From Candidatus Omnitrophota bacterium (GTDB taxonomy: Bacteria > Omnitrophota > Gorgyraeia > Zapsychrales > Fredricksoniimonadaceae): 64,000 nt of DNA. Each line of letters opens with the position of its first letter. Within the stretch, counting starts at the first letter, position 1. The DNA lies in contig CAIOPG010000006.1 of assembly GCA_903860135.1 (NCBI GenBank), forward strand, positions 21,117 to 85,116, written 5' to 3'. Below the pieces are notes generated by a model. The model was given only the letters and a program-made list of their open reading frames with translations, searched no databases and was not told the origin of the DNA. Positions 1,132 through 61,746 of this stretch are shown here, piece by piece. The translations under genes were made by a program, and so were the position numbers.

Positions 1132-1718
1132 TGCGCCGGGGCGGGTTTACGTTCATTGAGGTTATGCTGGTTTCGGCACTGTTCGCGATCCTTTCTGTTT
1201 CGATCTTCAAGTGCCTGCTCGATGGCATCAGACTTTCTGCACGGGCGAAGCAAATGATGTCCGGCGAGGATTCCGTACTTTTGTTCGACCGCCTGTCCTC
1301 TGATCTTCGCAACACATTCTTTTTTTCAAATATAGATTTTTCCGGTGATGAATTAAGCGTGGCATTTCCCTGCGTTATCTGGACACCGGCTGACCGCGTG
1401 AGCCTGCGCGCCGGGGAAGGCGTTGTTGACCAGATTGGCCGGGTTTCTTATGTTTATGATCCTTTCAAGGAAACGCTGGTGCGTCGTCAGGCCAATTATT
1501 CCCAGGCGCTGGCCGGCACCTGGGGACTCGATGAAGTGATGGTCGCCGGCGTTAAATCATTCCGGTTGCGATATTATTTCAAAGCCTCGCCGGAGCCTTC
1601 CACCCATGTCGCGGCGGCAGACGGTATCCCGTCAGGTGTTGAGCTTGAGTTGTCTGTGGTGGCCACGGACGGGACAAAGGTATTCAAACGTTATGTGGCT
1701 GTTCCGGCGGGGGTATAG
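1131..1718 (+). CDS. Minor pseudopilin (GspJ-like)
   Basis: N-terminus MRRGGFTFIEVMLVSALFAILSV. ATG 1131 overlaps the stop of the upstream gene (TGATG). Confidence 0.6.
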   Translation: MRRGGFTFIEVMLVSALFAILSVSIFKCLLDGIRLSARAKQMMSGEDSVLLFDRLSSDLRNTFFFSNIDFSGDELSVAFPCVIWTPADRVSLRAGEGVVDQIGRVSYVYDPFKETLVRRQANYSQALAGTWGLDEVMVAGVKSFRLRYYFKASPEPSTHVAAADGIPSGVELELSVVATDGTKVFKRYVAVPAGV

Positions 1719-2741: not shown

Positions 2742-2796
2742 TCAATTTTATGTTGATGCCCTTTAAAGACATAGTCTATAATGTTCGCAACAAAGA

Positions 2797-4293: not shown

Positions 4294-4909
4294 ATTTATT
4301 TCCGGGCTTTCTTCAAATGAACGCAAGATACTTACGGTCGCGTCCTTGTTTGTTCTTTTTGCTCTTTTCGACAGGCTTCTGGTGGGGCCTTCGTTGGGCC
4401 GGATGAAAGAACTCGACGAAAGCATCGCCAAAGAAGAAGATACTGTCCGCAGGAATCTTCGTTTTCTGGGTTACAAGGAGCGCATTGTCGGGCAAGCGGC
4501 CGCTTTCCGTGATTTCTATACGCAAGAGGTGCGCAGTGAAGATGAGGTTATTGCGGATTTCCTGAAAAAGATGGAAGGCATGGGATCGCAGGCGCAGGTT
4601 ACCTTGTCGAAGATATCGCCTGCCGGTCAGGAAGCGCAGAAGGATTATATCAAATATTTTGTGACCATGGATTGTACGGGCAAGCTTGAGAATCTCATGA
4701 CTCTTGTCTATACGATCAACAATGCGCAGGAATTGATCAAAGTTGAGAAAGTCAGTTTTTCCGGCAATTCGCGCGGAGCTGATACCGTCCAGGCTAACCT
4801 GACGGTTTCCAAAATGATCATCGGCGTAGATCCTTCCGTCGAAGCCAAAGCCCTTGTGCATGAAAAAGAGGTTGTCAAGGCCGAGGTCAACGCGGACATG
4901 GCAAAATGA
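4283..4909 (+). CDS. GspM/PilO-like bitopic inner-membrane assembly protein
   Basis: N-terminal TM helix and about 180 aa periplasmic domain. Overlaps the upstream gene by 11 nt. Called by context; direct similarity is weak. Confidence 0.4.
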   Translation: MISKFISGLSSNERKILTVASLFVLFALFDRLLVGPSLGRMKELDESIAKEEDTVRRNLRFLGYKERIVGQAAAFRDFYTQEVRSEDEVIADFLKKMEGMGSQAQVTLSKISPAGQEAQKDYIKYFVTMDCTGKLENLMTLVYTINNAQELIKVEKVSFSGNSRGADTVQANLTVSKMIIGVDPSVEAKALVHEKEVVKAEVNADMAK

Positions 4910-5700
4910 TCCCCTTCTGGCACCGGGCTTTTGCCTTGTGCGTCCTTTTTTTATGGGTATCCTCTGTTTGTGTTTCTGCCCTTCCATTAAGCCGGGAACA
5001 GTTATTTCAGCTGGCCACCATCGCGGCGGGAGAACATCAATTCGAACGTGCCATTGAACTTTTTCAGAAGGTCATTGAGAAAGAGCCTGCGTTCGCGCCA
5101 GCTTATAACGGGATCGGGCTTGTTCATCAATCAGACGAGAATGGTTCGATGGCTGAAGCGCTCCGCTATTTCAGGCTCGCTGTTGACATAGATCCGCAAT
5201 ACATTGAAGGTTGGAATAATCTGGGGCGTACATATTATACCCAAGGGAGTTTTGTAGAAGCGGAGCAGGCTTTTTTGTCCTCACTGCGCCTGAAACCCGG
5301 GCAAACAGATATTGAATTTTCCCTGGGCTGGGATTATCTTCTGGGGCAGTCCCGTCCAGATGAGGCCATTGATTATTTTGATAAAGTGATCGCGCATCAG
5401 GATAATCCCATGATCTATTACGGGATGGGGCTGGCGAATCTCCTTAAAGGCGATCGGTTAAAAGTGATCGAGGCTGTGACGCAATTACGCCGCCACCAGC
5501 GGGAAGAACAGGCTGTCCGCCTTGAAACCATGCTCAGGGAAAATGTCCTGATCAATTCCAAACCGGGGTTGCCATTGGTGACGGGTACGAAAGAGGATGA
5601 GTCATTGTTTGATCGTCAGCTTAAAGAGCTTGAGGCTAAAGGGTATAATGGCCAGGGTAAGGAAGGTATCAAGGTTCGTCTGAAAGGACCTTTATTGTGA
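4906..5700 (+). CDS. Secreted TPR-repeat protein
   Basis: Signal peptide then TPR-like repeats (AYNGIGLVH..., GWNNLGRTYYTQGSFVEA...). ATGA overlap with the upstream gene. Confidence 0.55.
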   Translation: MIPFWHRAFALCVLFLWVSSVCVSALPLSREQLFQLATIAAGEHQFERAIELFQKVIEKEPAFAPAYNGIGLVHQSDENGSMAEALRYFRLAVDIDPQYIEGWNNLGRTYYTQGSFVEAEQAFLSSLRLKPGQTDIEFSLGWDYLLGQSRPDEAIDYFDKVIAHQDNPMIYYGMGLANLLKGDRLKVIEAVTQLRRHQREEQAVRLETMLRENVLINSKPGLPLVTGTKEDESLFDRQLKELEAKGYNGQGKEGIKVRLKGPLL

Positions 5701-6836
5701 AGAAGAACTTTATCGTCTGTGTTGCGCTGGGGACGCGTCCTGAGGCTATCAAGCTTGCGCCTGTGATCATGGCCTTGCGTGCCACCTCGGGGGTCACGGT
5801 GCGCGTGCTTGTCACGGGACAGCACCGTGTCATGATGGACGAGGCGCTGGCGGTGTTTGGCATCACCCCTGATCATGATCTGAATATTATGCGTAAAGGC
5901 CAGGCCCTGTTTGATGTCACCGCACGTATCCTTCAGGGGGTGCCGCGCGTCCTGGCGCAGGAACCGGTTGACCTGATGGTCGTTCAGGGGGACACGGCGA
6001 CCACCTTTGCCTGTGCCCTGGCGGCGTATTATCACCGTATCCCGGTGGCGCATGTTGAGGCGGGGTTACGGACGGGAGATAAATACAGGCCTTTTCCTGA
6101 AGAAGTAAATCGGCGTTTGACCGGTGTCCTAGCAGACCTTCATTTTCCGCCAACGCCGCAAGCAGAGCAGGCACTCTTGCGCGAAGGGGTTGCCCGTCAG
6201 CGGGTGATCATGACCGGCAATACGGTGGTCGATGCGCTTCGCCAGGCGGCCGTGGCCAAACAAGGTTTTACGCATCCGCTATTGAAGACACTCGATGCGT
6301 CTGGCCGCAAGCTGGTGCTGGTGACCTTGCATCGGCGGGAGAGTTTCGGTGATGGGTTGCGCCAGGTCCTGCTGGCCTTGCGGGATATCAGCGTACTGCC
6401 CGGCGTGGATGTGGTGTATCCGGTGCATTTGAATCCGCAGGTGCGCGCGCAGGTCAAGGAAACGCTGGCCGGCGGGAAGGTGCATCTCCTGGAACCTTTG
6501 ACGTATGATCAATTTATTCTTTTGATGAAGAAAGCGCGCGTGATCGTGACGGATTCAGGCGGTATTCAGGAAGAGGCTTGCGCGTTAAGAAAGCCGGTGC
6601 TTATCACCCGTGAGACAACGGAACGCCCGGAGGCTGTCGCGTCGGGGTTTGCGGAACTGCTTGGGTTTGACCGCCCCCGCATTACGGCTGCCGCTGAGCG
6701 ACTCCTGACAGATGAAAAATATTACCGTGAACGCACGCGCCATGTGAATCCTTTCGGTGACGGAAAAGCGTCTGTACGTATCGCCAAGGCGTGTTTGAGT
6801 TACCTTAAAGAAAATCAATCCCGAGGTAAAATATGA
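5697..6836 (+). CDS. wecB: UDP-N-acetylglucosamine 2-epimerase (non-hydrolysing)
   Basis: Motifs VALGTRPEAIKLAPV, VTGQHR, HVEAGLRT, DSGGIQEE. GTG start overlaps the TPR gene stop (GTGA). Confidence 0.9.
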   Translation: MKKNFIVCVALGTRPEAIKLAPVIMALRATSGVTVRVLVTGQHRVMMDEALAVFGITPDHDLNIMRKGQALFDVTARILQGVPRVLAQEPVDLMVVQGDTATTFACALAAYYHRIPVAHVEAGLRTGDKYRPFPEEVNRRLTGVLADLHFPPTPQAEQALLREGVARQRVIMTGNTVVDALRQAAVAKQGFTHPLLKTLDASGRKLVLVTLHRRESFGDGLRQVLLALRDISVLPGVDVVYPVHLNPQVRAQVKETLAGGKVHLLEPLTYDQFILLMKKARVIVTDSGGIQEEACALRKPVLITRETTERPEAVASGFAELLGFDRPRITAAAERLLTDEKYYRERTRHVNPFGDGKASVRIAKACLSYLKENQSRGKI

Positions 6837-7528
6837 TATCCATTGTCGTTCCTGCGTATAACGAAGAAGAGGTTATTGTGCGTTTCCTGGAAGCATGTGT
6901 CCGGGACATCCGGCGCGACCTGCCTTTTGAGATCGTGGTCGTCAATGACGGCAGCCGTGATAATACGCGTGAACTGGTGCGCGGGTTTACGGCCAAGTAC
7001 GCGTTCATCCGTCTCGTGGACCACGAGGTCAACCGTGGCCTGGGGAAGGCACTGGAAACCGGCATCGCGGCGGCGCGCGGGGATGTTATTGTCACCATGG
7101 ATTCAGACCTGACCCATCCGCCGGCCATGATCCGTGAATTGGCAGCCGGCCTCAAGGATGCGGATATCTGCATCGCATCACGTTATGTGAAAGGCGGCGG
7201 CATGAAGGATGTCCCTGCCTGGCGCGTGTGGGTCAGCCGTTTGGCGAACTATCTGTTCGATCTGATCTTCTGGACGAACATCAAGGATCTTTCTTCCGGT
7301 TTCAAGGCATACCGCGCCCAACATCTGAAGAAGGCGCCGATCATGTCCAACGGATTCGAGTGCCAGATGGAGATCATGCTTTATTTTATCAAGAACAAAC
7401 TGCGTTCGCGTGAAATCCCGCTCATGCTCAAGAACCGTGAATTTGGCACGTCCAAGTTCCAGTTTGTCAAGATGGGGATGAAGTATGTGCGCAGCCTCAA
7501 GCGTTTCCTCGTCTACCGCTGGTCATGA
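6833..7528 (+). CDS. GT2 polyprenyl-phosphate sugar synthase (DPM1/ArnC/GtrB-like)
   Basis: Motifs ISIVVPAYNEEE, VVNDGSRDNT, DSDLTHPP. ATGA overlap with wecB. Confidence 0.85.
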   Translation: MISIVVPAYNEEEVIVRFLEACVRDIRRDLPFEIVVVNDGSRDNTRELVRGFTAKYAFIRLVDHEVNRGLGKALETGIAAARGDVIVTMDSDLTHPPAMIRELAAGLKDADICIASRYVKGGGMKDVPAWRVWVSRLANYLFDLIFWTNIKDLSSGFKAYRAQHLKKAPIMSNGFECQMEIMLYFIKNKLRSREIPLMLKNREFGTSKFQFVKMGMKYVRSLKRFLVYRWS

Positions 7529-7529
7529 T

Positions 7530-9182
7530 ATGAACCGGCCTGTTTTTTCATGGTTGACGGTGAGATCTTTTCAGATCGGGCTTATTGCCCTCGGGTTGGT
7601 GTTGCGCTGCATTCATTACGTCGAGAACCGCTCGTTCTGGCAGGATGAGCTATGCCTGGCGCTGAGCATTGTCAACCGTTCGTTCACGGAAATATTCCAT
7701 AACACCCTTCTTTTTCCTGATTTTGCCCAAGCACCGCTGTTGTTTCAATTCATGGTAAAGATCTTTGCCGGTGTGTTCGGCAACAATGAAATGGCACTCC
7801 GGTTTTTTCCGTTTGTGACCGGGGTCGCCGCGCTTTTCCTTGCCCGGCGTTTTTTTAATCGCCTGCTGGCACCCATCCCTGCCACCCTGGCGCTAGGCCT
7901 TTTCGCCCTGGCCGAACCGCTTGTTTATTTTTCAGCAGAACTCAAACCGTACGGCGTTGATGTTTTTGCGGCGTTGTTGGTGTATGAAATGTTTTTTGCC
8001 TTGAAGGAACGCTGGACATTGCGGCATTTGGCTGTTTTTATGGCGGGTGGAGCCTTGGTGATCTGGCTGTCGAATGCCATGCTCTTTATTCTTGCCGGAG
8101 CAGGGCTTGTGTTCGGCCTTGATCATCTGAAGCGGCAGGAATGGTCTAAAGTGCGTCAGCTGGCGATGGCTTATGGTCTATGGCTGGTTAGTTTTTTAAT
8201 CTTGTACAAGGTTTCGTTGAGCGGGATGCTCAATCATGACCTGGTGAGGAACTGGCGTCTGGCAGGCGGGTTTTCGCCCGAACCTGCGTTCTCGTTGGGC
8301 TGGCTGGTGTGGATCGCCAAGGCTTTTCTGGATATGTTCCGTTCACCCTTAGGGCTCGGCTGGACGGGGTTGATGGCGGTCTTCTTCTTCTGCGGTTGCT
8401 GGTTTATTTATCGCCGGGACAGGTTGCTTCTGTGGCTATTAATGGCACCGCTCTTGCTGGTGTTGTCGGCTGGTGCTTTCGACAAGTACCCCTTCTTTGA
8501 ACGACTAGTTCTTTTCCTTGTGCCCGCCGTGCTTGTCATCCTAGCTGAGGGTGTCTGTGGCGTTGCTTTTTCCAGGGTCTGGCAGGGGCGGGCCTGGGGG
8601 TCATGGATCGTTATAGCCGCTGTCCTGTGGTATCCTGTGTCGGCGGCGGCCTGGCAGGCGGTGCATCCGCGCGGGCATGAAGATAACCGTGCGGCCATGC
8701 AGTACCTGACAGATCATTACCGCCCAGGTGACATGGTGGCGATAAGCCCTCAAGCCCAGTATCCATTCTGGTATTACAGCCAGCGCATGGGGCTCACCAG
8801 CCGTTTGCCGATGCATCCGGCGGGGGCATCGGGAGAGCGCGTGACACCCGTGATCCAGCTGTTTCCTGATATTGTGCCTGAATCTGGGCAGGAGATGCTC
8901 GCGTTGCGCCAGACCCTCAGTGTGTATGATGCCGCCGGTTATTATCGTTCTTTCCGGCTGGCTGGGCGCTCGAGTGCCCCTTTGTTTGTCCCCGCGGCAT
9001 CGCCCGCGATCCTCAAAGGCATGGGCCGGGTATGGGTCTTCTTGTCGCATCACAATAATGCCCGTTACCCGTTATTTGTGGATCAGGTGTTTTCACGTGC
9101 CGGAGAGCGGCTGGATTACTTCGAACGGCCTGGTGTTTGTGTTGGCCTTTATGACGTTCCTTTGGCCGATAAGAAAAAGTAA
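7530..9182 (+). CDS. Polytopic GT-C glycosyltransferase of the ArnT/PMT (COG1807-like) family with a C-terminal periplasmic domain
   Basis: More than 10 predicted TM helices. A QDE motif lies in the first loop after TM1. Sits 1 nt after the GT2 stop. ATG at the MNRP codon was chosen over the upstream in-frame ATG at 7485, which overlaps the GT2 gene. Confidence 0.6.
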   Translation: MNRPVFSWLTVRSFQIGLIALGLVLRCIHYVENRSFWQDELCLALSIVNRSFTEIFHNTLLFPDFAQAPLLFQFMVKIFAGVFGNNEMALRFFPFVTGVAALFLARRFFNRLLAPIPATLALGLFALAEPLVYFSAELKPYGVDVFAALLVYEMFFALKERWTLRHLAVFMAGGALVIWLSNAMLFILAGAGLVFGLDHLKRQEWSKVRQLAMAYGLWLVSFLILYKVSLSGMLNHDLVRNWRLAGGFSPEPAFSLGWLVWIAKAFLDMFRSPLGLGWTGLMAVFFFCGCWFIYRRDRLLLWLLMAPLLLVLSAGAFDKYPFFERLVLFLVPAVLVILAEGVCGVAFSRVWQGRAWGSWIVIAAVLWYPVSAAAWQAVHPRGHEDNRAAMQYLTDHYRPGDMVAISPQAQYPFWYYSQRMGLTSRLPMHPAGASGERVTPVIQLFPDIVPESGQEMLALRQTLSVYDAAGYYRSFRLAGRSSAPLFVPAASPAILKGMGRVWVFLSHHNNARYPLFVDQVFSRAGERLDYFERPGVCVGLYDVPLADKKK

Positions 9183-9290: not shown

Positions 9291-9307
9291 TTCCTTTGTG
9301 AAGAAAG

Positions 9308-9414
9308 TCTAAGGGCAAACTACTTGAAAAAGTAGGGCGCAAAGCCGTGAGCCTGAACCCGTCGTGTTGCGGGAAGGTTGTCTGGTTGCCGATGTGAGTA
9401 CGTTAACTCACGGC
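9308..9414 (+). promoter_or_regulatory. c-di-GMP-I (GEMM) riboswitch aptamer candidate
   Basis: AAGGGCAAACuacuuGAAAAAaguagGGCGCAAAGCCgugaGCCUGAACC...GUUGCCGAUG closely parallels the Vibrio Vc2 aptamer GGGCAAACcauucGAAAgagugGGACGCAAAGCCuccgGCCUAAACC...GUUACCGAUGG. A GNRA-type hairpin is present. The outer stem gccgugag/cucacggc closes the element. Confidence 0.6.
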
Positions 9415-9446
9415 AAAACCCTTCGATCTTTTCGAAGGGTTTTTTC
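9415..9446 (+). terminator. Intrinsic terminator serving as the riboswitch expression platform
   Basis: Stem cccttcga/tcgaaggg (9419-9426 and 9432-9439), 5-nt loop, then a run of six T. Lies 54 nt upstream of the 9500 start codon. Confidence 0.7.
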
Positions 9447-9499: not shown

Positions 9500-11140
9500 A
9501 TGGGGCGTTATTTATCGATAACCTTTGCGGCTACAGTCGCAATTATTTCTTTATTTCCTTTACATAATGTTGCGGCGAGGGAAGATATTCCTATGATGAT
9601 GCCGCAGGAACAACCCATGATGCCATTCCCTTATCAAATGCCCGTTAATCCTGGTGTGCCTGTGCCGGCAACGGGGTCTGTTGTGCCGTTGCCCGTGCCT
9701 GTGTTGCCCAAGGGGGATGCCCTGGTTGCCTGGATGGCGTCTAATGTCAGTTCCAAGACAGGCATGTTTTTCAGTTTTCAGGTCTTACCTGAAGAAAAAG
9801 CCGAGATCTACGGTGCCATGGGCGAGGCTTCTTCTGTGCCCGGGATCGTTGAACGCACCATTGTCGAAGAAGGGCTGGATATTTACGATGGCGCTGTCGG
9901 GCAGATCGCGTTGACCGTTGCCGGCGGGGAGGATAAATTAGCAGTGGCCAGGCATCAACTGGATGTGTACTGGTCAGGAAAATTGGAGAGCCTGATCAGT
10001 ATCCGGGCAGGGTATCCTAATTATAATTTTGTTTATGATCCCAAAGATCCGGAGGTCGTGACGTCGTTGCTGACAGACGAGGGCCGGCGCGGATTTATTT
10101 TTCGTATCATCAATGCCAATGGCAACTACCTGGTGCGGGATCCCTTGGACGGCAAGGAACGGATGGCGGGTTTCCCGGAAGCACCGGATCTACACTGGGA
10201 AGACTGGAAGCCGGTTGCCGGAGAGAATGCCTGGATCGTGATCGCGGCCATGCAGTTGTATCACAAAGAGTATTATAAAGCGGATGTGGATCAATACGTT
10301 GCGCCTGAAGGACCTGTCGAACTGCGCCTTGCCGAAGAATTGGCGCGTGCGGCCATGGTCCTGCAATCGGAGACCGGCGGCATAAGGATGGCACCGATAG
10401 GGACGTACCGTGAGAATGAATTTTATTCAACGTCCACCCAGGGCCAGTGGTGGTACAACCAGATTTCGACAGAGAATAATCTTTCCTGGTACAGCGCGTT
10501 CCGGATGCTGTACCGTGTGACCAGCAAAGAGATCTATCTCCAGGCGATGCAGAAGATGGCAGGTTTCTTCAAGCAGGTTTATGATCCGGTAACGCAGACT
10601 TTTTATCAGGGGATGACCTATAAAGCAGGTGTCTGGCAGGTGAACAGCTCGAATTTTGCGGTGGATGTGCAGACCTGGGGTATTTTATCGCTCGGCGCGG
10701 CTACCATTGAAGACTGGTTCGGAGAGGGCGTTGCCTATTCATTCTGGGCGAAGGCGCGGGAATATTCGGGCACCTGTAATGATCAAGGCTTATTGATGGG
10801 CGTGGGGTATACCAAAGAAAAAGGCCGTGTTTCTGTGGAGTGGAGCGCAGGGGCGATCATGGCGGCGCGTGAACTGGCGGTATTCTATCGTAATTCCCAT
10901 CGTGAACTGGCGCAGGCCGCGGGGCACGATGCGGAGCAGATGCGTGTCGGCATGGAATTACTGCGCCGCGACCTCCCGGGAGGCCAGTCTGCTTATGCCT
11001 ATTCATCCAAACGCGGCTGGATCCCTTTTGGCTGGAATTCGCATGACCCGCGTGTCGTCAGCCTGGCGTCGACCGGTTGGATGTTCTTTGTTGACAAGAA
11101 ATTTAATCCTTTTTGGCTCGATGGCAAAGGCCAGGACTGA
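9500..11140 (+). CDS. Secreted hypothetical protein with a Pro/Met-rich linker; possibly an (alpha/alpha)-barrel polysaccharide-active enzyme (weak)
   Basis: Signal peptide MGRYLSITFAATVAIISLFPLHNVAA. AGGAGG RBS. Trp/Tyr-rich motifs (WWYNQISTENNLSWY, AWIVIAAMQLY). No confident family assignment. Confidence 0.7.
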   Translation: MGRYLSITFAATVAIISLFPLHNVAAREDIPMMMPQEQPMMPFPYQMPVNPGVPVPATGSVVPLPVPVLPKGDALVAWMASNVSSKTGMFFSFQVLPEEKAEIYGAMGEASSVPGIVERTIVEEGLDIYDGAVGQIALTVAGGEDKLAVARHQLDVYWSGKLESLISIRAGYPNYNFVYDPKDPEVVTSLLTDEGRRGFIFRIINANGNYLVRDPLDGKERMAGFPEAPDLHWEDWKPVAGENAWIVIAAMQLYHKEYYKADVDQYVAPEGPVELRLAEELARAAMVLQSETGGIRMAPIGTYRENEFYSTSTQGQWWYNQISTENNLSWYSAFRMLYRVTSKEIYLQAMQKMAGFFKQVYDPVTQTFYQGMTYKAGVWQVNSSNFAVDVQTWGILSLGAATIEDWFGEGVAYSFWAKAREYSGTCNDQGLLMGVGYTKEKGRVSVEWSAGAIMAARELAVFYRNSHRELAQAAGHDAEQMRVGMELLRRDLPGGQSAYAYSSKRGWIPFGWNSHDPRVVSLASTGWMFFVDKKFNPFWLDGKGQD

Positions 11141-11186
11141 TCGCCCTGCCTTCCTGATAGAATCCCCCCAAAAATCTGTCTGTCAT

Positions 11187-11216
11187 TTGGTACATTTGAT
11201 ATTTATATGTTATCTT
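11187..11216 (+). promoter_or_regulatory. Putative extended -10 promoter (TGtTATCTT) for paralog A
   Basis: TATATGTTATCTT at 11204-11216. Weak -35 TTGGTA. Same motif as at 9282, 46170 and 54716. Confidence 0.3.
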
Positions 11217-11258
11217 TATTTCTAGATGGATGGAGTCTATTCAAGCAAGGGATAAAGA

Positions 11259-13466
11259 TTGAATATAAGAGTGATAGCGCACAGATGCTTGATGCTTTTT
11301 TTGATGCTGACTTTAGCGGCGTCAGATGTGCGTGTCTATGCGCAGGGAGTTCCCCCACCCGGCACCCGCCTGGCCTTGAGCCCTGTTTTCGCGCCGCCGC
11401 TACTCAAGGGCATCAAGGTGTTCCGCAACGATCCTTTTCGTTTTGATTTCATTTTGGATAAGGGGGATGTCCATCAACCGCTGCCCAGCGAACTTGAAAT
11501 AAAGCGCCTGATCAAATACTTCCTCGCTTCTTTGACGGTGCCCGAGAAAGATTTGTGGGTCAATTTAAGCCCTTATGAAAAAGACCGCATTGTGCCCGAA
11601 GCCTTTGGCCAGACCGAAATGGGGCGTGACTTACTGGCTCAAGACTACATTCTCAAACAGATAACAGCGTCAGTGATTTATCCTGATGAAAAAGTCGGCA
11701 AGGAATTTTGGTCTAAAGTCTATGCCGAAGCTCAGAAACGCTACGGCACCACCGACATCCCCGTCGACACTTTCAACAAAGTCTGGATCACCCCCGCTAA
11801 AGCCACCGTCTACGAACACCAAGACGCCGCCTATGTTGTCGAATCCAGGTTAAAGGTCATGTTGGAGTCCGATTATAAAGCCGCTATAGAAAATAAGGAA
11901 TTCGCACGTAGGGGCGGGTCCGTGACCCGCCCTATTTTATTAAATACGCCCCCAGCGTCACCCGCCCCCGCCGCAGCGTGGGGCGGGCATGGGAGGGGGG
12001 ATGACATCGCCAAACAAGTCCTCCGCGACGTCATCATCCCTATCCTCAACAAAGAAGTCAACGAAGGCCAAAACTTCGCCACCCTGCGCCAGGTCTACAA
12101 TTCCCTTATCCTTGCCACTTGGTATAAGCGTAAAGTCAAAACCAGCATCATGGGCAAGGCGTACGTCGATCAGAAGAAAGTTTCTGGCATTGACATCGCC
12201 GACAAGAACGAAAAAGAAAAGATCTGGTCTCAATATGTTGAAGCTTTCAAGAGGGGTGCTTTTAATCTGATCAAGGAAGAGAAAGACACGACGACTCAAG
12301 AAATGATCCCGCGGCAGTATTTTTCCGGTGGGGCGGATATGTCGATGGAGGTTTTTGAGGTAACAGATGCGGCCATGCCAGCAGAGGTAAATATTGATAA
12401 TTGCAGTATCGTAAATGTTGATGGGGGTATGCTGTTAGTGAATTCCGGTCTATCTAATCGCAAATGGGTAACAACTGATTTATTTGAACACAATCCACGG
12501 AAGTTTATGTATTCTGTAAAAATGTCTGGCCTTGCCAGGCTATTAAAACCACCAGCACAAGGCGATCCAATTTCGTATTCACTTGCTTTGATCAGTGATA
12601 GTTATTTGAAAACATTTAATCGAGGTGGTGGTGGCAATGTTGGATTAGTCTTTGATTTTGCGGATGAGGATGTTCTGGCAATTTTGGCATCGATGAACGA
12701 TATCGCGGCCTTTGATAAGACAGAGGAGACGCAACGTGAATTCATTAAAAAACAATTAAAACGTGATCCTAGTAATGTTATGTATCAAACTATTGTTGAC
12801 AATAGTCCTCCTAGGCAGCTTGCTATTGTGCCTGAAGAATTGATTAGGGCTTCAATCAAGGCAGGAAATAAGAATAATGAAGTAATTGTTAAGAATAATT
12901 TAACTCTGCAACCTAAAGCAATTATCTTGATTGTAAGGTGTCAGGGAGGATCACGTTTGTTTCGGGAAGATGTCGATGCCTTAAAGGTTAATCCAATGTT
13001 AAGTGAGGTCTATTCTGCAATGACAGCTGGGAAATTACCAGTTGTTATTGTCGGTGAAAATGGTTCCCCATTGAAGACTGCTAGGAGAATCTTTAAGCAT
13101 ATGTTTAGGGATCTTCAGGAAACAAGACCGTTCTTTTTTGAAAAGAAGTCTGGCCCATCGCCGGCAAAGTCCGGGTTTATAGGATGGATCGGTGTGTTCG
13201 TGAAGCAAAATCCTTCTGCTATTACACGTATAGATCGTGGCCAGAAGAATAGTGACAATGCCGAGAAGCTTGGCGGTATCGACCTTGATCCGGCCAAGAT
13301 CGACTTAAGTACAAAGAATTCCGGCGGCGAAATTGCGTTCAACCTCGACCCCGCGATGCTCGCCCGTATGCAGCATGCTTCTGGGATTTCGCCTGTTATT
13401 GTCAGTGTGCACCCGATGGAAAGCCTTTCGGCATTTCTGGGGATTGTGAAGCCGGGAGGGCGGTAG
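11259..13466 (+). CDS. Secreted protein of an uncharacterised paralogous family (paralog A, 735 aa)
   Basis: Signal peptide ending VYAQ. A roughly 300-aa N-terminal domain is highly similar to the 54826 gene (LIKYFLASLT, EEDLWVNLSPYE, GTTDIPVDTFNKVWIT, LKVMLESDY, EVNEGQNFA, PR.YFSGG). The last about 40 aa also match (DPAMLARMQ / DPIMVAEFQ). The central and C-terminal portions are AT-rich. TTG start; GTG at 11271 or ATG at 11292 are alternatives. Confidence 0.8.
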   Translation: MNIRVIAHRCLMLFLMLTLAASDVRVYAQGVPPPGTRLALSPVFAPPLLKGIKVFRNDPFRFDFILDKGDVHQPLPSELEIKRLIKYFLASLTVPEKDLWVNLSPYEKDRIVPEAFGQTEMGRDLLAQDYILKQITASVIYPDEKVGKEFWSKVYAEAQKRYGTTDIPVDTFNKVWITPAKATVYEHQDAAYVVESRLKVMLESDYKAAIENKEFARRGGSVTRPILLNTPPASPAPAAAWGGHGRGDDIAKQVLRDVIIPILNKEVNEGQNFATLRQVYNSLILATWYKRKVKTSIMGKAYVDQKKVSGIDIADKNEKEKIWSQYVEAFKRGAFNLIKEEKDTTTQEMIPRQYFSGGADMSMEVFEVTDAAMPAEVNIDNCSIVNVDGGMLLVNSGLSNRKWVTTDLFEHNPRKFMYSVKMSGLARLLKPPAQGDPISYSLALISDSYLKTFNRGGGGNVGLVFDFADEDVLAILASMNDIAAFDKTEETQREFIKKQLKRDPSNVMYQTIVDNSPPRQLAIVPEELIRASIKAGNKNNEVIVKNNLTLQPKAIILIVRCQGGSRLFREDVDALKVNPMLSEVYSAMTAGKLPVVIVGENGSPLKTARRIFKHMFRDLQETRPFFFEKKSGPSPAKSGFIGWIGVFVKQNPSAITRIDRGQKNSDNAEKLGGIDLDPAKIDLSTKNSGGEIAFNLDPAMLARMQHASGISPVIVSVHPMESLSAFLGIVKPGGR

Positions 13467-47423: not shown

Positions 47424-47524
47424 AAGAACCCCTTTGATGATATTTAAAATATAAGATAGGTTTGATAATATCATATTTTCAAGAAAGCGGAATAAAAGTT
47501 TTGGTTTTGTGGTATAAGAGGAGT

Positions 47525-54825: not shown

Positions 54826-56436
54826 ATGGTACAAAAAACGCTAACCTTTCGCTGGATCTCAATCTGGGTTTTGGTGAGTTTTCTGGCCACCGCCGTGATC
54901 CCGCCCAAAGTGTACGCGCAGGCACTGAACCTGCCGGCGCCCGGGGCTATGGTGGGGTTGACCCCGGCGTATGTGCCGATCCTGATGAAGGGCGTGCGGG
55001 TGCATCCCGAGAATCCGCTTCTTTTTGATTTTATTGTGGACAGCGGGAAATCAAATTTTAAAGCAGAAAGCCCGGCGTTCAAGGCGGAGTCACAGAAGCT
55101 CATCAAGTATTTCTTGGCGTCGTTGACCATCAAGGAAGAAGATCTTTGGGTTAATTTAAGCCCGTATGAAAACAACCGCATCATCCCGCAGGTACTGGGC
55201 AAGACCGAGATGGGCCGCGATATGCTGGCGCAGGATTATATCCTCAAGCAATTGACCGCTTCGCTTATATATCCCGAGAAGGACCTGGGCAAGGCGTTCT
55301 GGAACCGGATCTACACCAAAGCCAAGGAACAGTTTGGCACAACCGATATCCCGGTCGATACCTTTAACAAAGTCTGGATTACCTCCGACAAGGCAAAAGT
55401 CTTTGAACGCAACAATGTCGCTTATATCGTCGGCGCGCACCTGAAAGTCATGCTCGAATCCGATTATCAAGCTGCGCAGGCTGTTGGCGTGCGTACAGGT
55501 GATCCTGTTATCACACCCGCCCCCGCCGCAGTGTGGAGAGGGCAAGGGAGGGGGGCGTCAGAAGAACTTGCCAAACAGGTCATCCGCGACGTCGTCATCC
55601 CCGAGATCGAAAAAGAAGTCAACGAAGGCCAGAATTTTGCAATGCTGCGCCAGATGTTCTATTCGATGATCCTCGCCTCTTGGTACAAGCTCGCTTTGAA
55701 AGATGCCCTGTTGAATCAGGTGTACAGTAATAAAGATAAAACCAGCGGGGTTCTCTCCGATGACCCGGCGGTAGCCACCAAGATCTACGAACAGTACCTG
55801 CAGGCGTATAAGAAAGGCGTGTTCGATTACATCAAAGAAGATATGGACGCTGTCACCCATGACCCTCTGCCCAGAAAGTATTTCTCGGGGGGGGTCGTTG
55901 ATTTGGCTAGCAAGGTGGAAGTTGAACGTCAGTCGGGTCGTTTGAATCTGACGGAAAATACCCAGCTCATATCTTCAGTATTCCTTTTGATGGTAAAGTT
56001 TTCGTCGGTGTTGGGAGGGCGTCTTTCATTGGCCAAACATTTGTCTTTGGTTGCGCTGATGACGGGTCTGTTCGCATGTCAGCCTGCTGTCCAGCCTCCG
56101 GCTGATCTTTTCTATGATTTAAGTAATTCCGACTTGATTACTTACCCTATTCAACTTGCGCCTGCCGATGCTACAAGGGTCTTTGTTCCCTTCAAGGTGG
56201 ATCATTCTGCGGATGTCGGTGGTATCGCGCTCAATGGGAAGCTGATGGACTTGGATGTGGCCAAAGACGGGAAGGGCGTTGAGATGAAATTCGATCCGAT
56301 CATGGTGGCGGAGTTTCAGCGGGGAAATTTTACGGGGGTTGAGGGGGTTATCCTCAATATTGTTCCGATGGTCAGCCCCTTATCGTTGTTGGGTCTGGAT
56401 AAAGCTTCGGTGGAGTTGGTGTCGGCCAAAGGGTGA
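54826..56436 (+). CDS. Secreted protein of the same uncharacterised paralogous family (paralog B, 559 aa)
   Basis: Signal peptide ending VYAQA. N-terminal about 300 aa are highly similar to the 11259 gene, with nucleotide identity around 70-80% in conserved blocks. The C-terminal tail is also similar. The gene is 31 nt upstream of tpsA. Confidence 0.8.
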   Translation: MVQKTLTFRWISIWVLVSFLATAVIPPKVYAQALNLPAPGAMVGLTPAYVPILMKGVRVHPENPLLFDFIVDSGKSNFKAESPAFKAESQKLIKYFLASLTIKEEDLWVNLSPYENNRIIPQVLGKTEMGRDMLAQDYILKQLTASLIYPEKDLGKAFWNRIYTKAKEQFGTTDIPVDTFNKVWITSDKAKVFERNNVAYIVGAHLKVMLESDYQAAQAVGVRTGDPVITPAPAAVWRGQGRGASEELAKQVIRDVVIPEIEKEVNEGQNFAMLRQMFYSMILASWYKLALKDALLNQVYSNKDKTSGVLSDDPAVATKIYEQYLQAYKKGVFDYIKEDMDAVTHDPLPRKYFSGGVVDLASKVEVERQSGRLNLTENTQLISSVFLLMVKFSSVLGGRLSLAKHLSLVALMTGLFACQPAVQPPADLFYDLSNSDLITYPIQLAPADATRVFVPFKVDHSADVGGIALNGKLMDLDVAKDGKGVEMKFDPIMVAEFQRGNFTGVEGVILNIVPMVSPLSLLGLDKASVELVSAKG

Positions 56437-56467: not shown

Positions 56468-59400
56468 ATGCTGAGACATATCATCAAAAGCTTATTGGGC
56501 ATATGGTGTTTGATCCTGGGGTTGACTTGTTGTGCATTGGCAGAACCGCCACAGGTTAAGGTTGTTGACGGTGACGGCACTCTTTCCCAGACGCAGGCTC
56601 CTGCGGCATCGACAACGGATTTTACGGTGTCAGGTCATATTGTAGGTGAAACCAGCCGGGCCGACATTCTTCCTGATGAGACGTGGAATGTACGCTTTTC
56701 AAATCCAAACGACAGCTTTCTTCTTCGTGTCCTTGACCCTTCGGGTACACGCATTCTTGGGAACTTGAATATTTATTACGGGAGCTTTGTCCTGTTGAAC
56801 ACCCATGGGATCGATATAGGCGCGTTGGCGAGGGTGAATGTCAATCATGCTGTTTTTGTTGCCTCGACGATCGACATTCAAAATCGTGATTTCATAGCGG
56901 GGAAGTATGCTTTTGATGCTGCGCACGGAGCCGCCAACAGAACTGTAGTTAACCACGGTTTGATCAGGACAATGGGTTCCAGTTCGGTCGTTTTGTTGGG
57001 TCAGGCCGTTGAGAATGCAGGGGTGATTGAGGCGCCACTCAGCAAGGTTGCGCTAGCCGCTGGTGATGCCGTGACATTGAGCCTCGATGCCAATGGGTTG
57101 ATCGGTGTGGAGGTCGCGGATCCGGTGAAAAGCAAGGTCCTTGACGGGGATGGCCGTGAGGTCGCCGCGCAGGTTGCCAATACGGGGACGATCACCGCCG
57201 ATGGCGGGACTGTGTTGATTAGCGCCAGGTCCTTGAATGATGTTTTCAACCGCAGCGTGAACCTTGAGGGGCGTATTCAGGCTAATCAGGCCCTGCAAGG
57301 TGCTGACGGCACCATCAGGATCGTGGCTTCGGATAAAATTGTTAATACGGGCGTGCTGGCAACGCGCAACGGCAAGCTTTATCTTACCAGTGACGGCGCG
57401 ATAGAAACGTCGGGGCATCTGGCGGCCGGGACGCTGGTGGAGCAAGGGGCGTCATGGCGCATGGGCGGTGAGGTGCAGGTCGGGACGGCCAGCATGGACA
57501 ATGCCGACGGCGCCGCGGTTTTGAGTACGGGCAGTTATACCGGGACGTTTGAGGATTCCGGCGATATCATTGTTGACAACGACGCCCGTATCACGCTGAC
57601 CGGTGCGACCGTGTTTGGGGCGGACACGGATCCCGGGACGCAGGCCCATGATGGCAACGGCATTTTCACCATGAACACCGGGTCTTCGATCATCGGCGGG
57701 GGGCATGCCTTGACGCTGTATTCCGCCGACAGGGATTCCGCCGGGGGAGCGGCGTCGTCGGTCCTTCGCGATATCAGCGGGGTCAACGGGTTGAACCTTT
57801 ATCGTTCTTCGGCGGCAACGGCCAGTCCTGCCTATACGCTGCGTGGAACCCTGGACGCAGGGGCGTACAATCTGGACATCGACGGGGATATTGTCTTGGA
57901 TCCAGGAGGCGCGTTGACCAATGCGGCTGATATTTTTATCACGGGTAACTGGACTAATAACGGTGGCACGTTCACGCCAGGGGCGAGCAGGGTGAATTTT
58001 ATCAGCACCATAGCGGATCAGCTGATCAACGGGACTGCCGTGGCACAGGTGTTTTATGACATCAGGGTGGCCAAGGGCAGTAAGACGTTAAGCGTGGGGG
58101 GCAGTACAACGGCATTGTCCTTGCACGACTTGGCCTTGGACAGTGGCATTTTCGCGACGGGGACGGCAACGACGGTCAATGTGGCGGGCAATGTGGTCTT
58201 TAATTCATTGGCAGTGACCGGATTTAATGGATTAACGCTCGATGCCGACACGTTCACGGCCAACGATGTGGTCAATATGATCGGCAACACGGCGCGCACC
58301 TATTACCCGGTTACGGATGCCGTGCTTGATGCGATGATCGCCGGCAGTCAGGTCAAGACCTTGATCATCGGCGTGCCGTATGACCAGGATGCATATGGCT
58401 GGCTGGCCAATTACTGGGGCGGCAGTGTCCCCGTCGGGACGAACCGCGTGAATATGGTTGATCGTAATTATGTTGCGTACATCGCGCATGTGAAGGACAG
58501 GATCGCCTCGGCGGGTTCAAGCCTGAAGCTTATCGTCGAGTTTGGTAATGAGTATAACCTCCATCCGGAGTGGTTTGGCGGTGATAGCCGGAACTGGTTC
58601 TCGGCGTTGACGGCGGCGGTCAGTGCTGTTCACGCGGCCTTCGGCAACAGTGTCAGGGTTTCAACAGCCACAGGTGATATTCCAGCAGATTTTGTGACGA
58701 CCATCCGGACTGGTGTTGACCTCGTTGGCGTGAACACTTATCGTGGGTTGGGCAACACCAGTTCGCTGGTAGCTGATTGGAATACGGCATGCTCTCTGAC
58801 GGGGATGGCGACACCTCTTTATGTCTCTGAATCGGGGTTCCCCTCGTGGGTCTGGGATGGTGGAGAGGCACAGCAGGACATCAATGTTCTTTCGTTGCGT
58901 GATGAGTTCCTGAAGAACAATCTTGGCATAACGTTCATGAGTTTTGAAGATAACATGAGGAAGGGCGGCTCGTTGTTTACCCAGGATTCACGTGAAGATT
59001 ATTGGGGATGGTTGCGCGCCAACGGGACGCATAAGGCGGTGTATGACACCATGTCGGCCGCTTGGGCATTGCCGGAGTTTCAGGCCGGGGCGGCGCATAT
59101 TAATGTTGCCGGTGACTGGGTCAATAACGGTGGCACATTTACCGCGGGCACAAGCACGGTGACGTTCGATGCGTCCAATGCCGGACACATCGTTAAATCC
59201 GGGACGTCGGCGTTTGCGGATGTTGTTTTTGACGATGGGGGCAAAGGCGGAGCTTGGACAGTAGCGACGGATCCCATGCAGGTCAACGGGAATTTGTCGC
59301 TGACCAGTGGCCATGTGACCCTTGGCATGAAGCTTATGGTTGGGGGCAATCTTGACATTGTCAACGCCACACTCGATGCGGTGGGTAAGACCATTGAACT

Positions 59401-59965
59401 TGCGGGGGACTGGCGCAATGCTGGACTTTTTATCCACGGGAATAATACTGTGACGCTCACCGGAGATGACCAGACGGTAGCAGGGGACAATACTTTCTAT
59501 AATTTGACCAAGACAAGTGCTAAAGGATCGGCACTGACTTTTGAGGCTGGATCTGTGCAGGCGATCGCGGGGGCACTGACATTAACAGGGTGTTCGGATG
59601 TTTACATGCGCTTGCGTTCGGACGTTCCCGGGAAGCAGTGGAAGATGCGTGCGGCTTCGGTTGATATGCAATGGCTTGACTTGAAGGACTCCTGGAATAC
59701 TGGAGACGATATCACGCCTTTGAATTTTCTGGATAGTGGCAATAATACAGGTTATGCCTTTGATCCTGATTATCCTGCTTTATCGACGGGTATTTTCCGT
59801 TTGGATGTCCTAGATATTCATGGGTTGACGTTTAATCTGGCTGTTGCACATGAGGCTCGTCTTGCGGCGCAGTTTCTGGGGTCATCCTTGATAGAAATGG
59901 ATGTGCCGTTTCCGGGAACTCCGCCCGTTATGTTTGGTTTATCCCATAAGTTCATGGTTGAATAA
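56468..59965 (+). CDS. Two-partner secretion exoprotein (TpsA/filamentous-haemagglutinin-like) with an internal GH-A-clan-like glycoside hydrolase segment
   Basis: Signal peptide. TPS-domain-like N-terminus (SNPNDSFLLRVLDPSGTRILGNLNIYYGSFVLLNTHGIDIGALARVNVNHAVFVASTIDIQNRDF). Gly/Thr/Asn-rich beta-helix-like repeats. An internal segment has VEFGNEYN (acid/base-like) and LYVSESGFPSW (nucleophile-like). Confidence 0.7.
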   Translation: MLRHIIKSLLGIWCLILGLTCCALAEPPQVKVVDGDGTLSQTQAPAASTTDFTVSGHIVGETSRADILPDETWNVRFSNPNDSFLLRVLDPSGTRILGNLNIYYGSFVLLNTHGIDIGALARVNVNHAVFVASTIDIQNRDFIAGKYAFDAAHGAANRTVVNHGLIRTMGSSSVVLLGQAVENAGVIEAPLSKVALAAGDAVTLSLDANGLIGVEVADPVKSKVLDGDGREVAAQVANTGTITADGGTVLISARSLNDVFNRSVNLEGRIQANQALQGADGTIRIVASDKIVNTGVLATRNGKLYLTSDGAIETSGHLAAGTLVEQGASWRMGGEVQVGTASMDNADGAAVLSTGSYTGTFEDSGDIIVDNDARITLTGATVFGADTDPGTQAHDGNGIFTMNTGSSIIGGGHALTLYSADRDSAGGAASSVLRDISGVNGLNLYRSSAATASPAYTLRGTLDAGAYNLDIDGDIVLDPGGALTNAADIFITGNWTNNGGTFTPGASRVNFISTIADQLINGTAVAQVFYDIRVAKGSKTLSVGGSTTALSLHDLALDSGIFATGTATTVNVAGNVVFNSLAVTGFNGLTLDADTFTANDVVNMIGNTARTYYPVTDAVLDAMIAGSQVKTLIIGVPYDQDAYGWLANYWGGSVPVGTNRVNMVDRNYVAYIAHVKDRIASAGSSLKLIVEFGNEYNLHPEWFGGDSRNWFSALTAAVSAVHAAFGNSVRVSTATGDIPADFVTTIRTGVDLVGVNTYRGLGNTSSLVADWNTACSLTGMATPLYVSESGFPSWVWDGGEAQQDINVLSLRDEFLKNNLGITFMSFEDNMRKGGSLFTQDSREDYWGWLRANGTHKAVYDTMSAAWALPEFQAGAAHINVAGDWVNNGGTFTAGTSTVTFDASNAGHIVKSGTSAFADVVFDDGGKGGAWTVATDPMQVNGNLSLTSGHVTLGMKLMVGGNLDIVNATLDAVGKTIELAGDWRNAGLFIHGNNTVTLTGDDQTVAGDNTFYNLTKTSAKGSALTFEAGSVQAIAGALTLTGCSDVYMRLRSDVPGKQWKMRAASVDMQWLDLKDSWNTGDDITPLNFLDSGNNTGYAFDPDYPALSTGIFRLDVLDIHGLTFNLAVAHEARLAAQFLGSSLIEMDVPFPGTPPVMFGLSHKFMVE

Positions 59966-59985: not shown

Positions 59986-61746
59986 ATGCGCAAAGGAATG
60001 TGGGTAATAGTTGTCATCGGATTTTGGGTGTTTTTGGTCAATGCCAGCGGAGAACTATTTGCCGCTGTCCCTGACATTGAACAGGCGAGTCAGTCTTCCG
60101 TTATAGGGAAACGTGTCCCTCAGGGGATTGAAAAGGCCATGGATGATGTCCAAGCTACGTTTAAATCCAGGATGATCAAAGAGGCACTGGATGCCGTAGA
60201 ATCTGCGTTGCAAGGTGCTTCGCCTAAGGCTCTGCCGCTTGTTCCGGATAACAACGGGGTTTCTTTTTTTGTCAGGAAGGTGCAGGTGAAAGATTCGCAG
60301 TTGTTGACAGAGACTTCCCTGGCGCCTTTGCTTGAGCCTTTTGAGGGCCACCAGCAGACGATTCGGGCGATGCAGGGTCTTGCAGATATGATCACGGCTG
60401 AGTACCGCAAGCGCGGATACCTGAGCAGCCAGGCCTATATTGCGCCTCAAGAAATAGCGGATGGCGTCTTTACGGTTTCTGTGCTCGAGGGGCGTATCGG
60501 TCGGGTCATTTTCGAAGGGAACAAGCATTATTCCACAGAGGTGCTCAGTCGTTACTGCGTTATCCATGAAGGGGATTTCTTCCGTTACCAGAAATTGCAG
60601 GAATCCGTCTTTAAGCTCAATGCGCACCCTGACAGGGTTGTTCGGGCGATCATCCGTCGAGGCAGTGCCCTCGGGCAGACGGATATTATCTTTAAGGTTG
60701 ATGAAAACAAATTGTTGGCGTCAAACCTTTTGATGGATAACCGCGGCTCGAAGCCTGTCGGTCAGCATCGTGGTGGGCTAGGCTTGCGCCGTGACAATCT
60801 GTTTGGGCAGGATGATACCCTGCGCATGGGCACCATGATCGGGAAGGCGTTCAGCTCGGGATTTGTGGAGCATGCCTTGCCCATTCAAGCGTTGGGTTCC
60901 GTCTGGAAAACAGGGGTTAGTATGGCCAAGTCCGCACCCCGGAAGCAATACAAGCCTTATCGGGTCAGCAGTACTTCCATGGATTACTGGGGCAGGCTCG
61001 AGACTAGGTTTATTACCACAGAAAGCCTTGCCCTAGATTGGCGCACAGGGATGGATATTAAAGAGAGCCGCACCATGGTGCTCTCTGGGACAGACAGCCG
61101 TGAACGGCTTAGGGTTATCCGCTTCGGGCCTACGCTGACCCTGCGCGATGACGGTGGCATGACGGTGATCGATGATCAGTTCTCGCTCGGACTTAATGCG
61201 ATGGGGGCGGTGCTGAGTAGCGGGTCTTCGCAGCGGGCAGGAGTAACACCGGCTTTCTTTGCTTCGGACTTCAGCCTTGAGCGCCTACAGCGGATGCCGC
61301 TGAAGACGCGGTTATCTTTAAAGGGAAGATCGCATTTGTCGGGTGATAAACAGCCGGCGTCAGAACAAATGCTCTTGGGCGGGGCGGACACGGTGCGCGG
61401 GTATCCTGAAGGAGACTATTTTGCTGATCAGGGTGTGTTGATGAATGCGGAATATTTGGTGCCGTTTTTTTTCATTCCTGATGCATGGAAGATGCCAGGC
61501 ACAAAGAACCGTATGCGTGATGCGCTTGATTTTGCGTTTTTTTATGATCATGGCCTCGGTTGGGTGAAGTCTCCGGTCAACGGCCAGAAAGCGTCGACGA
61601 GCTTGCGCGGAACGGGTGTTGGCGTGCGCGTACGTATGGCGGCTGATGTTTACTTTACCATGGATCTTGCCTACGCTATTGGTGCCAAGCCTGATCTGAG
61701 CGACAATCATTTCAGGATCCACTCCGCCATACAAGCTAATTTCTAG
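59986..61746 (+). CDS. TpsB (ShlB/FhaC family) outer-membrane transporter
   Basis: Signal peptide. POTRA-like region then a 16-strand barrel-like C-terminal domain ending ...IQANF. Immediately downstream of the TpsA. Confidence 0.8.
   Translation: MRKGMWVIVVIGFWVFLVNASGELFAAVPDIEQASQSSVIGKRVPQGIEKAMDDVQATFKSRMIKEALDAVESALQGASPKALPLVPDNNGVSFFVRKVQVKDSQLLTETSLAPLLEPFEGHQQTIRAMQGLADMITAEYRKRGYLSSQAYIAPQEIADGVFTVSVLEGRIGRVIFEGNKHYSTEVLSRYCVIHEGDFFRYQKLQESVFKLNAHPDRVVRAIIRRGSALGQTDIIFKVDENKLLASNLLMDNRGSKPVGQHRGGLGLRRDNLFGQDDTLRMGTMIGKAFSSGFVEHALPIQALGSVWKTGVSMAKSAPRKQYKPYRVSSTSMDYWGRLETRFITTESLALDWRTGMDIKESRTMVLSGTDSRERLRVIRFGPTLTLRDDGGMTVIDDQFSLGLNAMGAVLSSGSSQRAGVTPAFFASDFSLERLQRMPLKTRLSLKGRSHLSGDKQPASEQMLLGGADTVRGYPEGDYFADQGVLMNAEYLVPFFFIPDAWKMPGTKNRMRDALDFAFFYDHGLGWVKSPVNGQKASTSLRGTGVGVRVRMAADVYFTMDLAYAIGAKPDLSDNHFRIHSAIQANF

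Follow-up and report, generated by a model that had tools for sequence, protein, structure and literature searches.

A fixed head-tail frame around exchangeable cargo in a large family of predicted secreted proteins of Omnitrophota

The two genes described here, paralogue A (11259..13466, + strand) and paralogue B (54826..56436, +), lie in a 64,000-nucleotide stretch of contig CAIOPG010000006.1 of a Candidatus Omnitrophota bacterium, referred to as the window. Judged by sequence comparison, both are members of a huge, undescribed, Omnitrophota-wide family in which a fixed frame, made of an N-terminal 'head' domain (the N-domain) and a C-terminal tail, encloses an exchangeable middle, here termed cargo. 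A encodes 735 amino acids (aa) from a TTG start codon with the ribosome-binding site AAGGGA 6 nt upstream, and B encodes 536 aa from an ATG preceded by AAGGGGA. In A, a Sec-type signal peptide (11259..11342; aa 1-28) is followed by the constant N-domain (11343..12332; aa 29-358), which contains a variable loop at aa 218-247 and ends with the invariant YFSGG, by the variable middle (12333..13253; aa 359-665) and by the constant tail, counted with the stop codon (13254..13466; aa 666-735), with the pattern GGIDL...DPAML...PVIV...FLG. The corresponding parts of B are the signal peptide (54826..54918; aa 1-31), the N-domain (54919..55893; aa 32-356), again ending in YFSGG, a short middle (55894..56199; aa 357-458) and a tail of divergent subtype including the stop codon (56200..56436), which reads GGIAL...FDPIMV...GVILNI...LLGL. 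No third copy was found in the window by tblastn.

Both leaders show the basic n-region, the hydrophobic h-region and the small residues at -3 and -1 expected of Sec-secreted proteins. The n-region carries R4, H8 and R9 in A and K4 and R9 in B, the hydrophobic cores are LMLFLMLTLAA and ISIWVLVSFLATAV, respectively, and cleavage is predicted by the -3/-1 rule at V-Y-A↓Q in both. BLASTP aligned the N-termini of A and B over ~360-365 aa with 49% identity (E 4e-124), 330 aa of which form the shared domain, and A 666-731 with B 459-526 at 32% identity over 68 aa (E 3e-7); no significant alignment was returned for the middles that lie between these segments. A preliminary description of this DNA had proposed an uncharacterised paralogous family with a common signal peptide ending in VYAQ, a common N-terminal domain marked by six near-identical sequence blocks, and unrelated middles. 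These points are borne out, all six blocks being present in A and B. A similar C-terminal tail also exists as it had stated, although its length is ~60-65 aa rather than 40 aa. The middle of A is shared only with two known relatives, P0002 and P0003 (45% identity); for that of B, comparison with 197 family members gave no homologue.

In the public annotation, A (P0001, 724 aa) begins with an internal ATG at 11292, 11 codons downstream of the TTG. Since the TTG at 11259 is preceded by a ribosome-binding site and brings back the basic n-region typical of the family, the deposited protein probably lacks its first 11 residues. Gene calls with a comparable N-terminal shortening were seen for 21 of the 197 family members. 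The variable loop of the N-domain of A also harbours a strong terminator-like hairpin (11911-11933, +) built from 10 base pairs, of which 8 are G-C, with ATTTTATT behind it. The peptide encoded there, RRGGSVTRPIL, is also conserved in P0010 and P0208 of other genomes; the hairpin could be a coincidence or an internal attenuator.

To define the extent of the family, the N-domain was compared by an exhaustive phmmer search with 1.84 billion representatives of clusters formed at 50% identity. At E<=1e-3 this returned 7,919 representatives, of which 6,133 also reached E<=1e-30; the proteins are 441-4,875 aa long, and the domain always begins 20-60 aa from their N-terminus. The search with full-length A gave at least 3,338 relatives; among the matches listed, all named ones are 'hypothetical protein' of Candidatus Omnitrophota/Omnitrophica. 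Among GTDB species genomes, at least 526 loci contain a relative, and the best 80 of these are nearly all labelled Omnitrophota, with single metagenome-assembled genomes (MAGs) accounting for 7-9 of the 80. Typical members were also found in records labelled otherwise. One of them (L034, DYOU01000049.1) is labelled Ca. Elulimicrobium, which the NCBI taxonomy places in the Patescibacteria group, and eight more (L028, L050, L051, L058, L068, L070, L072, L076) belong to records named 'uncultured Planctomycetales', from a few binchicken assemblies. The members in Elulimicrobium- and Planctomycetales-labelled records are 54-64% identical to the N-domain of A. Either the labels of these MAGs are generic or wrong, or the family reaches slightly beyond Omnitrophota. 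The literature on Omnitrophota that was searched contains no description of the family or of its motifs.

The order signal peptide, head, cargo and tail is kept with few departures. N-domain and tail are both present in 107 of the 120 best homologues, the remaining 13 being mostly partial, and the tail ends 0-22 aa from the C-terminus throughout this set. Likewise, 61 of 77 further representatives, among them proteins of 2,000-4,875 aa, carry a single tail, placed at the extreme C-terminus. The consensus of the tail is GGIDL.P....L....G..I.F..DPAML..LQNA.G..PVII.I.P...L..FLG. Export-signal features (a K/R-containing n-region, a hydrophobic core and an [AGS]↓[QE] junction) were recognised in 134 of 143 full-length members, the signal peptides of the relatives being scored with a simple heuristic and the cleavage sites being sequence predictions. 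Open reading frames (ORFs) that seemed to consist of a tail only turned out to be halves of split genes or to be cut at the edge of a locus, and a tail-profile search of a 5.8-billion-protein index gave 87 fragments of 41-146 aa, which are too short to judge whether a head is present. Split genes in MAGs consist of a head ORF and a tail ORF a few to tens of bases apart (L029 5947-11298, L036 5974-8916, L004 6001-8085); they could be due to frameshifts, stop codons, pseudogenes or assembly errors.

The smallest member, P0035 (438 aa), is composed of signal peptide, N-domain, a 15-aa linker and tail. Hence, the frame is complete in itself, with the cargo inserted between the invariant YFSGG and GGIDL. 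Middles are 10 to 876 aa long in the first set, and that of the largest member reaches ~4,400 aa. A D-x-A-M motif is enriched about eight-fold at both borders of the cargo: it occurs within 17 aa after YFSGG in 33% of members and within 20 aa before GGIDL in 27%, against a background for 'AM' of 3.6% per 17-aa window. In A, these border regions correspond to aa 359-372 and 655-672 (~12333-12374 and 13221-13274 of the window). Taken with the two invariant GG pairs, this enrichment hints at sites where processing or pairing might take place.

The cargo is essentially unlinked from the frame. The middles of 107 proteins fall into 87 cargo clusters, and among 159 complete members cargo is shared by only 89 of 12,561 pairs (0.7%); even where the N-domains are more than 72% identical, this holds for just 16 of 1,222 pairs. 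The N-domain of A is 73-76% identical to those of proteins carrying unrelated cargo; compared with its two cargo-orthologues, its N-domain is 70-76% identical and its cargo only 45%. The similarities of N-domain and tail are correlated with each other (Mantel rho 0.36; the maximum in 300 permutations was 0.10).

As judged from domain matches, the recognisable cargo is made up of cytoplasm-type enzyme and signalling folds. It includes S-adenosylmethionine (SAM) methyltransferases, GNAT, radical SAM proteins (one with a B12-binding domain), histidine phosphatase, zeta toxin (PF06414), ART-PolyVal (PF18760), Ser/Thr kinase, FHA, NUDIX, HATPase_c, CheR, family 2 glycosyltransferase (GT2), epimerase, GDSL lipase and TPR domains; members of 3,000-4,900 aa carry HPr-kinase and PPDK_N cargo. 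A second sample (n=36) searched with Pfam added PPDK_N (four members), phosphoenolpyruvate (PEP)-utilisers, transketolase, phosphoglucomutase and aldo-keto reductase, as well as receiver, mTERF, HEAT and a MurA/EPSP-synthase-like domain. The latter, 29% identical to the MurA encoded in the window itself, carries Asp at the position of the catalytic Cys. No Pfam domain was found in ~70% of family members. The middle of A likewise has no Pfam match, and its AlphaFold model is of low confidence. The middle of B comprises ~100 residues, equally modelled with low confidence, and includes one hydrophobic helix.

The constant parts are strongly conserved and escaped all database comparisons made. The N-domain shows 65% mean pairwise identity with ~40 invariant residues, and many polar residues are invariant (N102, S104, E107, D124, D129, Y130, K133, K174, D205, N268, R277, Q278 and K290). 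No 19-mer of the tail is hydrophobic, and the last residues of the tail are polar and variable. Head and tail of A and B gave no Pfam or NCBIfam match at E<=1, and neither single-sequence nor profile searches gave a match to PDB sequences. PHROGs returned nothing significant (best E 0.0038, with no aligned stretch) and BFVD no match. AlphaFold models computed from 121- and 104-sequence alignments gave predicted local distance difference test (pLDDT) values of 80-97 for the N-domain (~90 in B) and 82-89 for the tail (82-89 in A, 85-89 in B), with predicted template modelling (pTM) scores of 0.60 for A and 0.75 for B. For the N-domain the prediction is a helix-rich alpha+beta fold with two long beta-hairpins and about eight helices, and for the tail it is beta-beta-alpha-beta.

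The preliminary description had further suspected a recent duplication of A and B, or gene conversion between them, having seen a nucleotide identity of ~80% in places. Such places exist (83-85%, only in 60-nt windows around A residues 233-250), but over the aligned codons of the N-domain the nucleotide identity is 60.5%, and blastn gave 66.6% over 631 nt. At conserved amino acids, third codon positions are only 52% identical, and the duplication is therefore old. The locally similar patch corresponds to a PxPxxWGGxGRG loop, which is also found in 10 of 159 members from other genomes; from its sequence distribution this patch is a subfamily motif, not private to A and B, and gene conversion is unnecessary to explain their similarity. 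Across the family, paralogues within a genome are no closer (61% identity) than members from different genomes (59%), and for 50 of 81 family copies the best match lies in another genome. This speaks for a repertoire that is ancient and maintained rather than recently expanded or homogenised. The idea of a recent event was consequently abandoned on the grounds of third-position identity, cross-genome best matches and loop distribution.

Gene neighbourhoods were compared at 79 family loci. In the window, A lies downstream of a gene controlled by a cyclic di-GMP (c-di-GMP) riboswitch and B heads a two-partner secretion (TPS) operon, both as had been noted earlier. A c-di-GMP-I aptamer (9304..9393, +; 65.6 bits) is followed by a terminator hairpin (9415..9443, +) and by the first gene of the unit (9500..11140, +), encoding a protein of 546 aa with a signal peptide, for which Pfam gave no match even at E<=1. 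Because no terminator is present in 11141-11258, the riboswitch unit probably also carries A by co-transcription, as far as can be read from the sequence; a tRNA follows downstream of A. B is succeeded after 31 nt by TpsA (56468..59965, +; TPS domain PF05860, E 6e-11, the match being given for 56468-57667) and then by TpsB (59986..61746, +; POTRA_2 and ShlB, E 1e-16). In addition, genes resembling those of type II secretion systems and type IV pili (T2SS/T4P), including a GspK-like and a PilM/N gene, are located ~5-9 kb upstream of A. These links are real in the window, but they are not features of the family: across the 79 loci no neighbour gene family recurs, the largest cluster being an ABC-F ATPase at 6 loci, and the surrounding genes have housekeeping functions. 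The idea that the family is functionally tied to c-di-GMP riboswitches, TPS or T2SS genes was therefore rejected. Family genes are arranged in tandem arrays of 2-3 or more at 13 loci, with gaps of 23-100 nt and no small ORFs between them.

Placing a variable payload next to constant targeting modules is a known principle; the frame found here is undescribed in the literature searched. The closest parallels are substrates of the type IX secretion system (T9SS) of Bacteroidota and TpsA proteins. Like the family, T9SS substrates combine a Sec signal and diverse cargo with a small conserved domain at the extreme C-terminus, and they too are encoded by many paralogous genes per genome, dispersed and apart from the machinery. 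They differ in that their cargo consists of hydrolases or adhesins rather than cytoplasm-type enzymes and in that the family adds an obligatory 330-aa N-domain. Since the tail has no match to Por_Secre_tail or other T9SS C-terminal domains at E<=1 in Pfam and NCBIfam, T9SS cargo was ruled out; T9SS is not known from Omnitrophota. As in the family, the signal peptide of TpsA proteins leads directly into a conserved domain of ~250-330 aa, beyond which the sequence is variable over a long stretch. However, they lack a constant C-terminal tail, TPS genes are not conserved neighbours of the family, and the N-domain gave no PF05860 match and is predicted to be alpha+beta rather than the beta-helix of TpsA; A and B are thus not TpsA proteins. 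The family combines features of T9SS substrates and of TpsA, yet fails the defining sequence and fold tests of each.

A likeness to cellulosomes, where varied enzymes bear a small constant C-terminal module of ~60-70 aa that could dock onto a constant partner, was also considered. In the family, however, the putative partner domain belongs to the same protein chain, the cargo does not consist of carbohydrate-active enzymes, and neither dockerin (PF00404) nor cohesin (PF00963) was matched at E<=1 in Pfam. Signals for exosortase, sortase or rhombosortase (PEP-CTERM, LPXTG, GlyGly-CTERM) were discounted because NCBIfam gave no match and the tail has no sufficiently hydrophobic segment. RTX-type type I secretion was set aside in view of the signal peptide, the lack of an RTX/HemolysinCabind match and the occurrence of a single GGIDL rather than a repeat. 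Giant proteins of Omnitrophota hold the same kinds of domains and have been read as secreted effectors (10.1101/2023.11.21.568195; 10.64898/2026.06.07.730766). They are from the same phylum, combine a signal peptide and/or transmembrane segments with methyltransferase, radical SAM, NUDIX, HATPase_c, PPDK_N and TPR domains; the largest family members reach 3,000-4,900 aa. Most of the family differs from them in being 600-1,300 aa long with one or few cargo domains, and neither of the two preprints describes the frame of N-domain and tail.

A phage or mobile-element origin was likewise rejected: the PHROGs and BFVD searches were negative, the loci lie amid housekeeping genes, and a single relative, 29% identical in the N-domain, was found in IMG/VR. 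This sole relative on a viral contig (L080 4785-7475, in the 97.9-kb contig IMGVR_UViG_3300035208_003134) is 896 aa long. In it, an N-terminal hydrophobic segment and a divergent N-domain that keeps VPEKDLWVNL are combined with a degenerate GGIDL tail and a radical SAM domain (CNSDCVFC; PF04055, E 1e-14); a recombinase-like ORF is close by. This contig could represent a phage or mobile element of Omnitrophota, or it could be misclassified.

The explanation we favour, while giving it somewhat less than an even chance, is that head and tail are constant handles through which variable cargo is exported, targeted or assembled beyond the cytoplasm, possibly reaching prey cells. The signal peptide would take the unfolded chain across the inner membrane. 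A shared partner would then recognise N-domain and tail and position or export what lies between them; this partner might be an outer-membrane or secretion machine or an anchoring site, or head and tail might bind each other. Finally, the cargo would perform its specific job, for which the cytoplasm or envelope of another cell, prey or host, seems a likelier place than the periplasm of the producer because many cargo folds need SAM, acetyl-CoA, ATP/PEP, Fe-S clusters or thiamine diphosphate. Such a site of action would fit the lifestyle of the phylum: a predatory or host-dependent way of life has been proposed for Omnitrophota (PMC10066038), which include an ultramicrobial predator whose RNA was found inside dead prey cells (PMC13153191). 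In a narrower form, which we put forward only tentatively and hold to be the less probable of the two, head and tail would be address labels of an unrecognised Omnitrophota-wide sorting or delivery pathway that brings Sec-exported cytoplasm-type enzymes out of the cell and into or onto prey or host. On this view, cargo might be released by processing at the two invariant GG junctions flanked by D-x-A-M, and the pathway would represent a novel secretion or targeting system whose recognition domain has a new fold.

Several observations weigh against the handle model. No machinery was identified, and no neighbour gene is conserved across the 79 loci. The paralogues are old and have orthologues across genomes, as fits a stable repertoire better than a fast arms race. 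Some of the cargo resembles central metabolism (transketolase, MurA/EPSP-like, phosphoglucomutase, aldo-keto reductase), which is unusual for effectors. Moreover, we know of no precedent for radical SAM or other cofactor-dependent domains behind a Sec signal, and hence the 'signal peptide' could serve another purpose. Extra hydrophobic segments in 38 of 197 members could return parts of the cargo to the cytoplasm.

The strongest competitor, in our view unlikely, is a self-assembling envelope scaffold, in which the N-domain would bind the tail of another molecule or polymerise, giving a periplasmic or surface layer that displays enzymes. It would account for the existence of P0035, a complete protein consisting of the frame alone, for the history shared by head and tail (Mantel 0.36), for the many paralogues per genome and for an N-domain whose conservation is what is expected of a packing interface. 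The pTM scores of B and A, above what the N-domain alone would contribute, also hint at a defined head-tail arrangement in the models. On the other hand, no match to cohesin, dockerin, SLH or S-layer families was found in Pfam or NCBIfam, and a scaffold leaves the cofactor-dependent, cytoplasmic type of the displayed enzymes unexplained. Somewhat less credence is due to the idea that the N-domain is itself the working part, as an enzyme or in binding a ligand, lipid or cell wall, with the middles being accessory or regulatory. Its many invariant polar residues and a conservation far above that of the cargo would be in keeping with this; a single activity, though, fails to explain more than 80 unrelated cargo types, a size range of 10 to ~4,400 aa and an obligatory tail. 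Least probable of all appears the idea that leader and frame direct cytoplasm-type enzymes to a separate metabolic space within the producer, be it an internal compartment or a membrane domain, as in organelles or the compartmentalisation known from the Planctomycetes-Verrucomicrobia-Chlamydiae (PVC) group. The central-metabolism and cofactor-dependent enzymes among the cargo, the stable repertoire with orthologues across genomes and the restriction of the family to a PVC-group phylum would agree with it, but the leader resembles an ordinary Sec signal peptide and no such compartment is reported for Omnitrophota in the literature searched.

A constant trafficking part joined to an exchangeable enzymatic payload is also found in polymorphic toxins and polyvalent proteins, concepts developed by the Aravind laboratory, and the preliminary description had likened A and B to a polymorphic surface or effector family. 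As a comparison with modular families this is reasonable; the classical layout of polymorphic toxins is, however, absent. That the family consists of such toxins with cognate immunity proteins is improbable, barely more credible than the internal compartment, despite payloads of toxin type (zeta toxin, ART-PolyVal, GDSL lipase) and the TpsA/TpsB pair adjoining B. The variable part is internal instead of forming the C-terminal tip, which is constant in the 107 and 61 members counted above. A cognate immunity gene directly downstream is not seen: no neighbour family is conserved across the 79 loci, in the window a tRNA follows A and TpsA follows B, and the tandem gaps of only 23-100 nt leave no room for immunity genes. 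In addition, the paralogues are ancient, not strain-variable, much of the cargo is metabolic or of signalling type, and the N-domain is not of TPS, LXG, Rhs, PT-TG or MafB type by Pfam and NCBIfam. With polyvalent proteins the family shares an overlapping pool of domains (methyltransferases, ART-PolyVal, zeta toxin, NUDIX, kinases), but its genes are chromosomal and set among housekeeping genes, bar the one distant relative in IMG/VR.

The Omnitrophota are widespread, uncultured and ultra-small, with at least one predator among them. Given ~7,900 clusters and many genes per genome, the family would make up a sizeable share of their exported proteome, export being predicted. So strict an order of signal peptide, head, any cargo and tail is a pointer to common machinery for which no one has yet searched. 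Should the frame be a delivery signal, it would provide a sequence-based catalogue of candidate effectors for the whole phylum, a handle for discovery of the machine by phylogenetic profiling and a possible carrier of arbitrary enzymes across a bacterial envelope. The family may also explain the domain content of the giant proteins of the phylum, and even as a scaffold it would represent a new way to organise enzymes outside the cytoplasm.

Upstream of the first riboswitch, a run of genes on the + strand (469-9182) encodes a GspK-like protein (1719-2741), a PilM/PilN fusion (2797-4293), a TPR protein, a UDP-GlcNAc 2-epimerase, a GT2 and a PMT_2-type glycosyltransferase. This run resembles conserved T2SS/pilus loci reported near Omnitrophota giant genes. 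On the side of B, a T2SSE-type ATPase (50706-52067) ends ~2.8 kb upstream of the gene, and a fused M16 peptidase is encoded at 48078-50654. A second riboswitch (46186-46315, +), of the c-di-GMP-I-GGC type, scored 61 bits against a gathering score of 59 and is located just after trpF. The next sizeable + strand ORF begins at 47462, with a convergent OmpA/LysM gene (46413-47567, -) in between; possibilities for this riboswitch are an antisense transcript or an orphan element.

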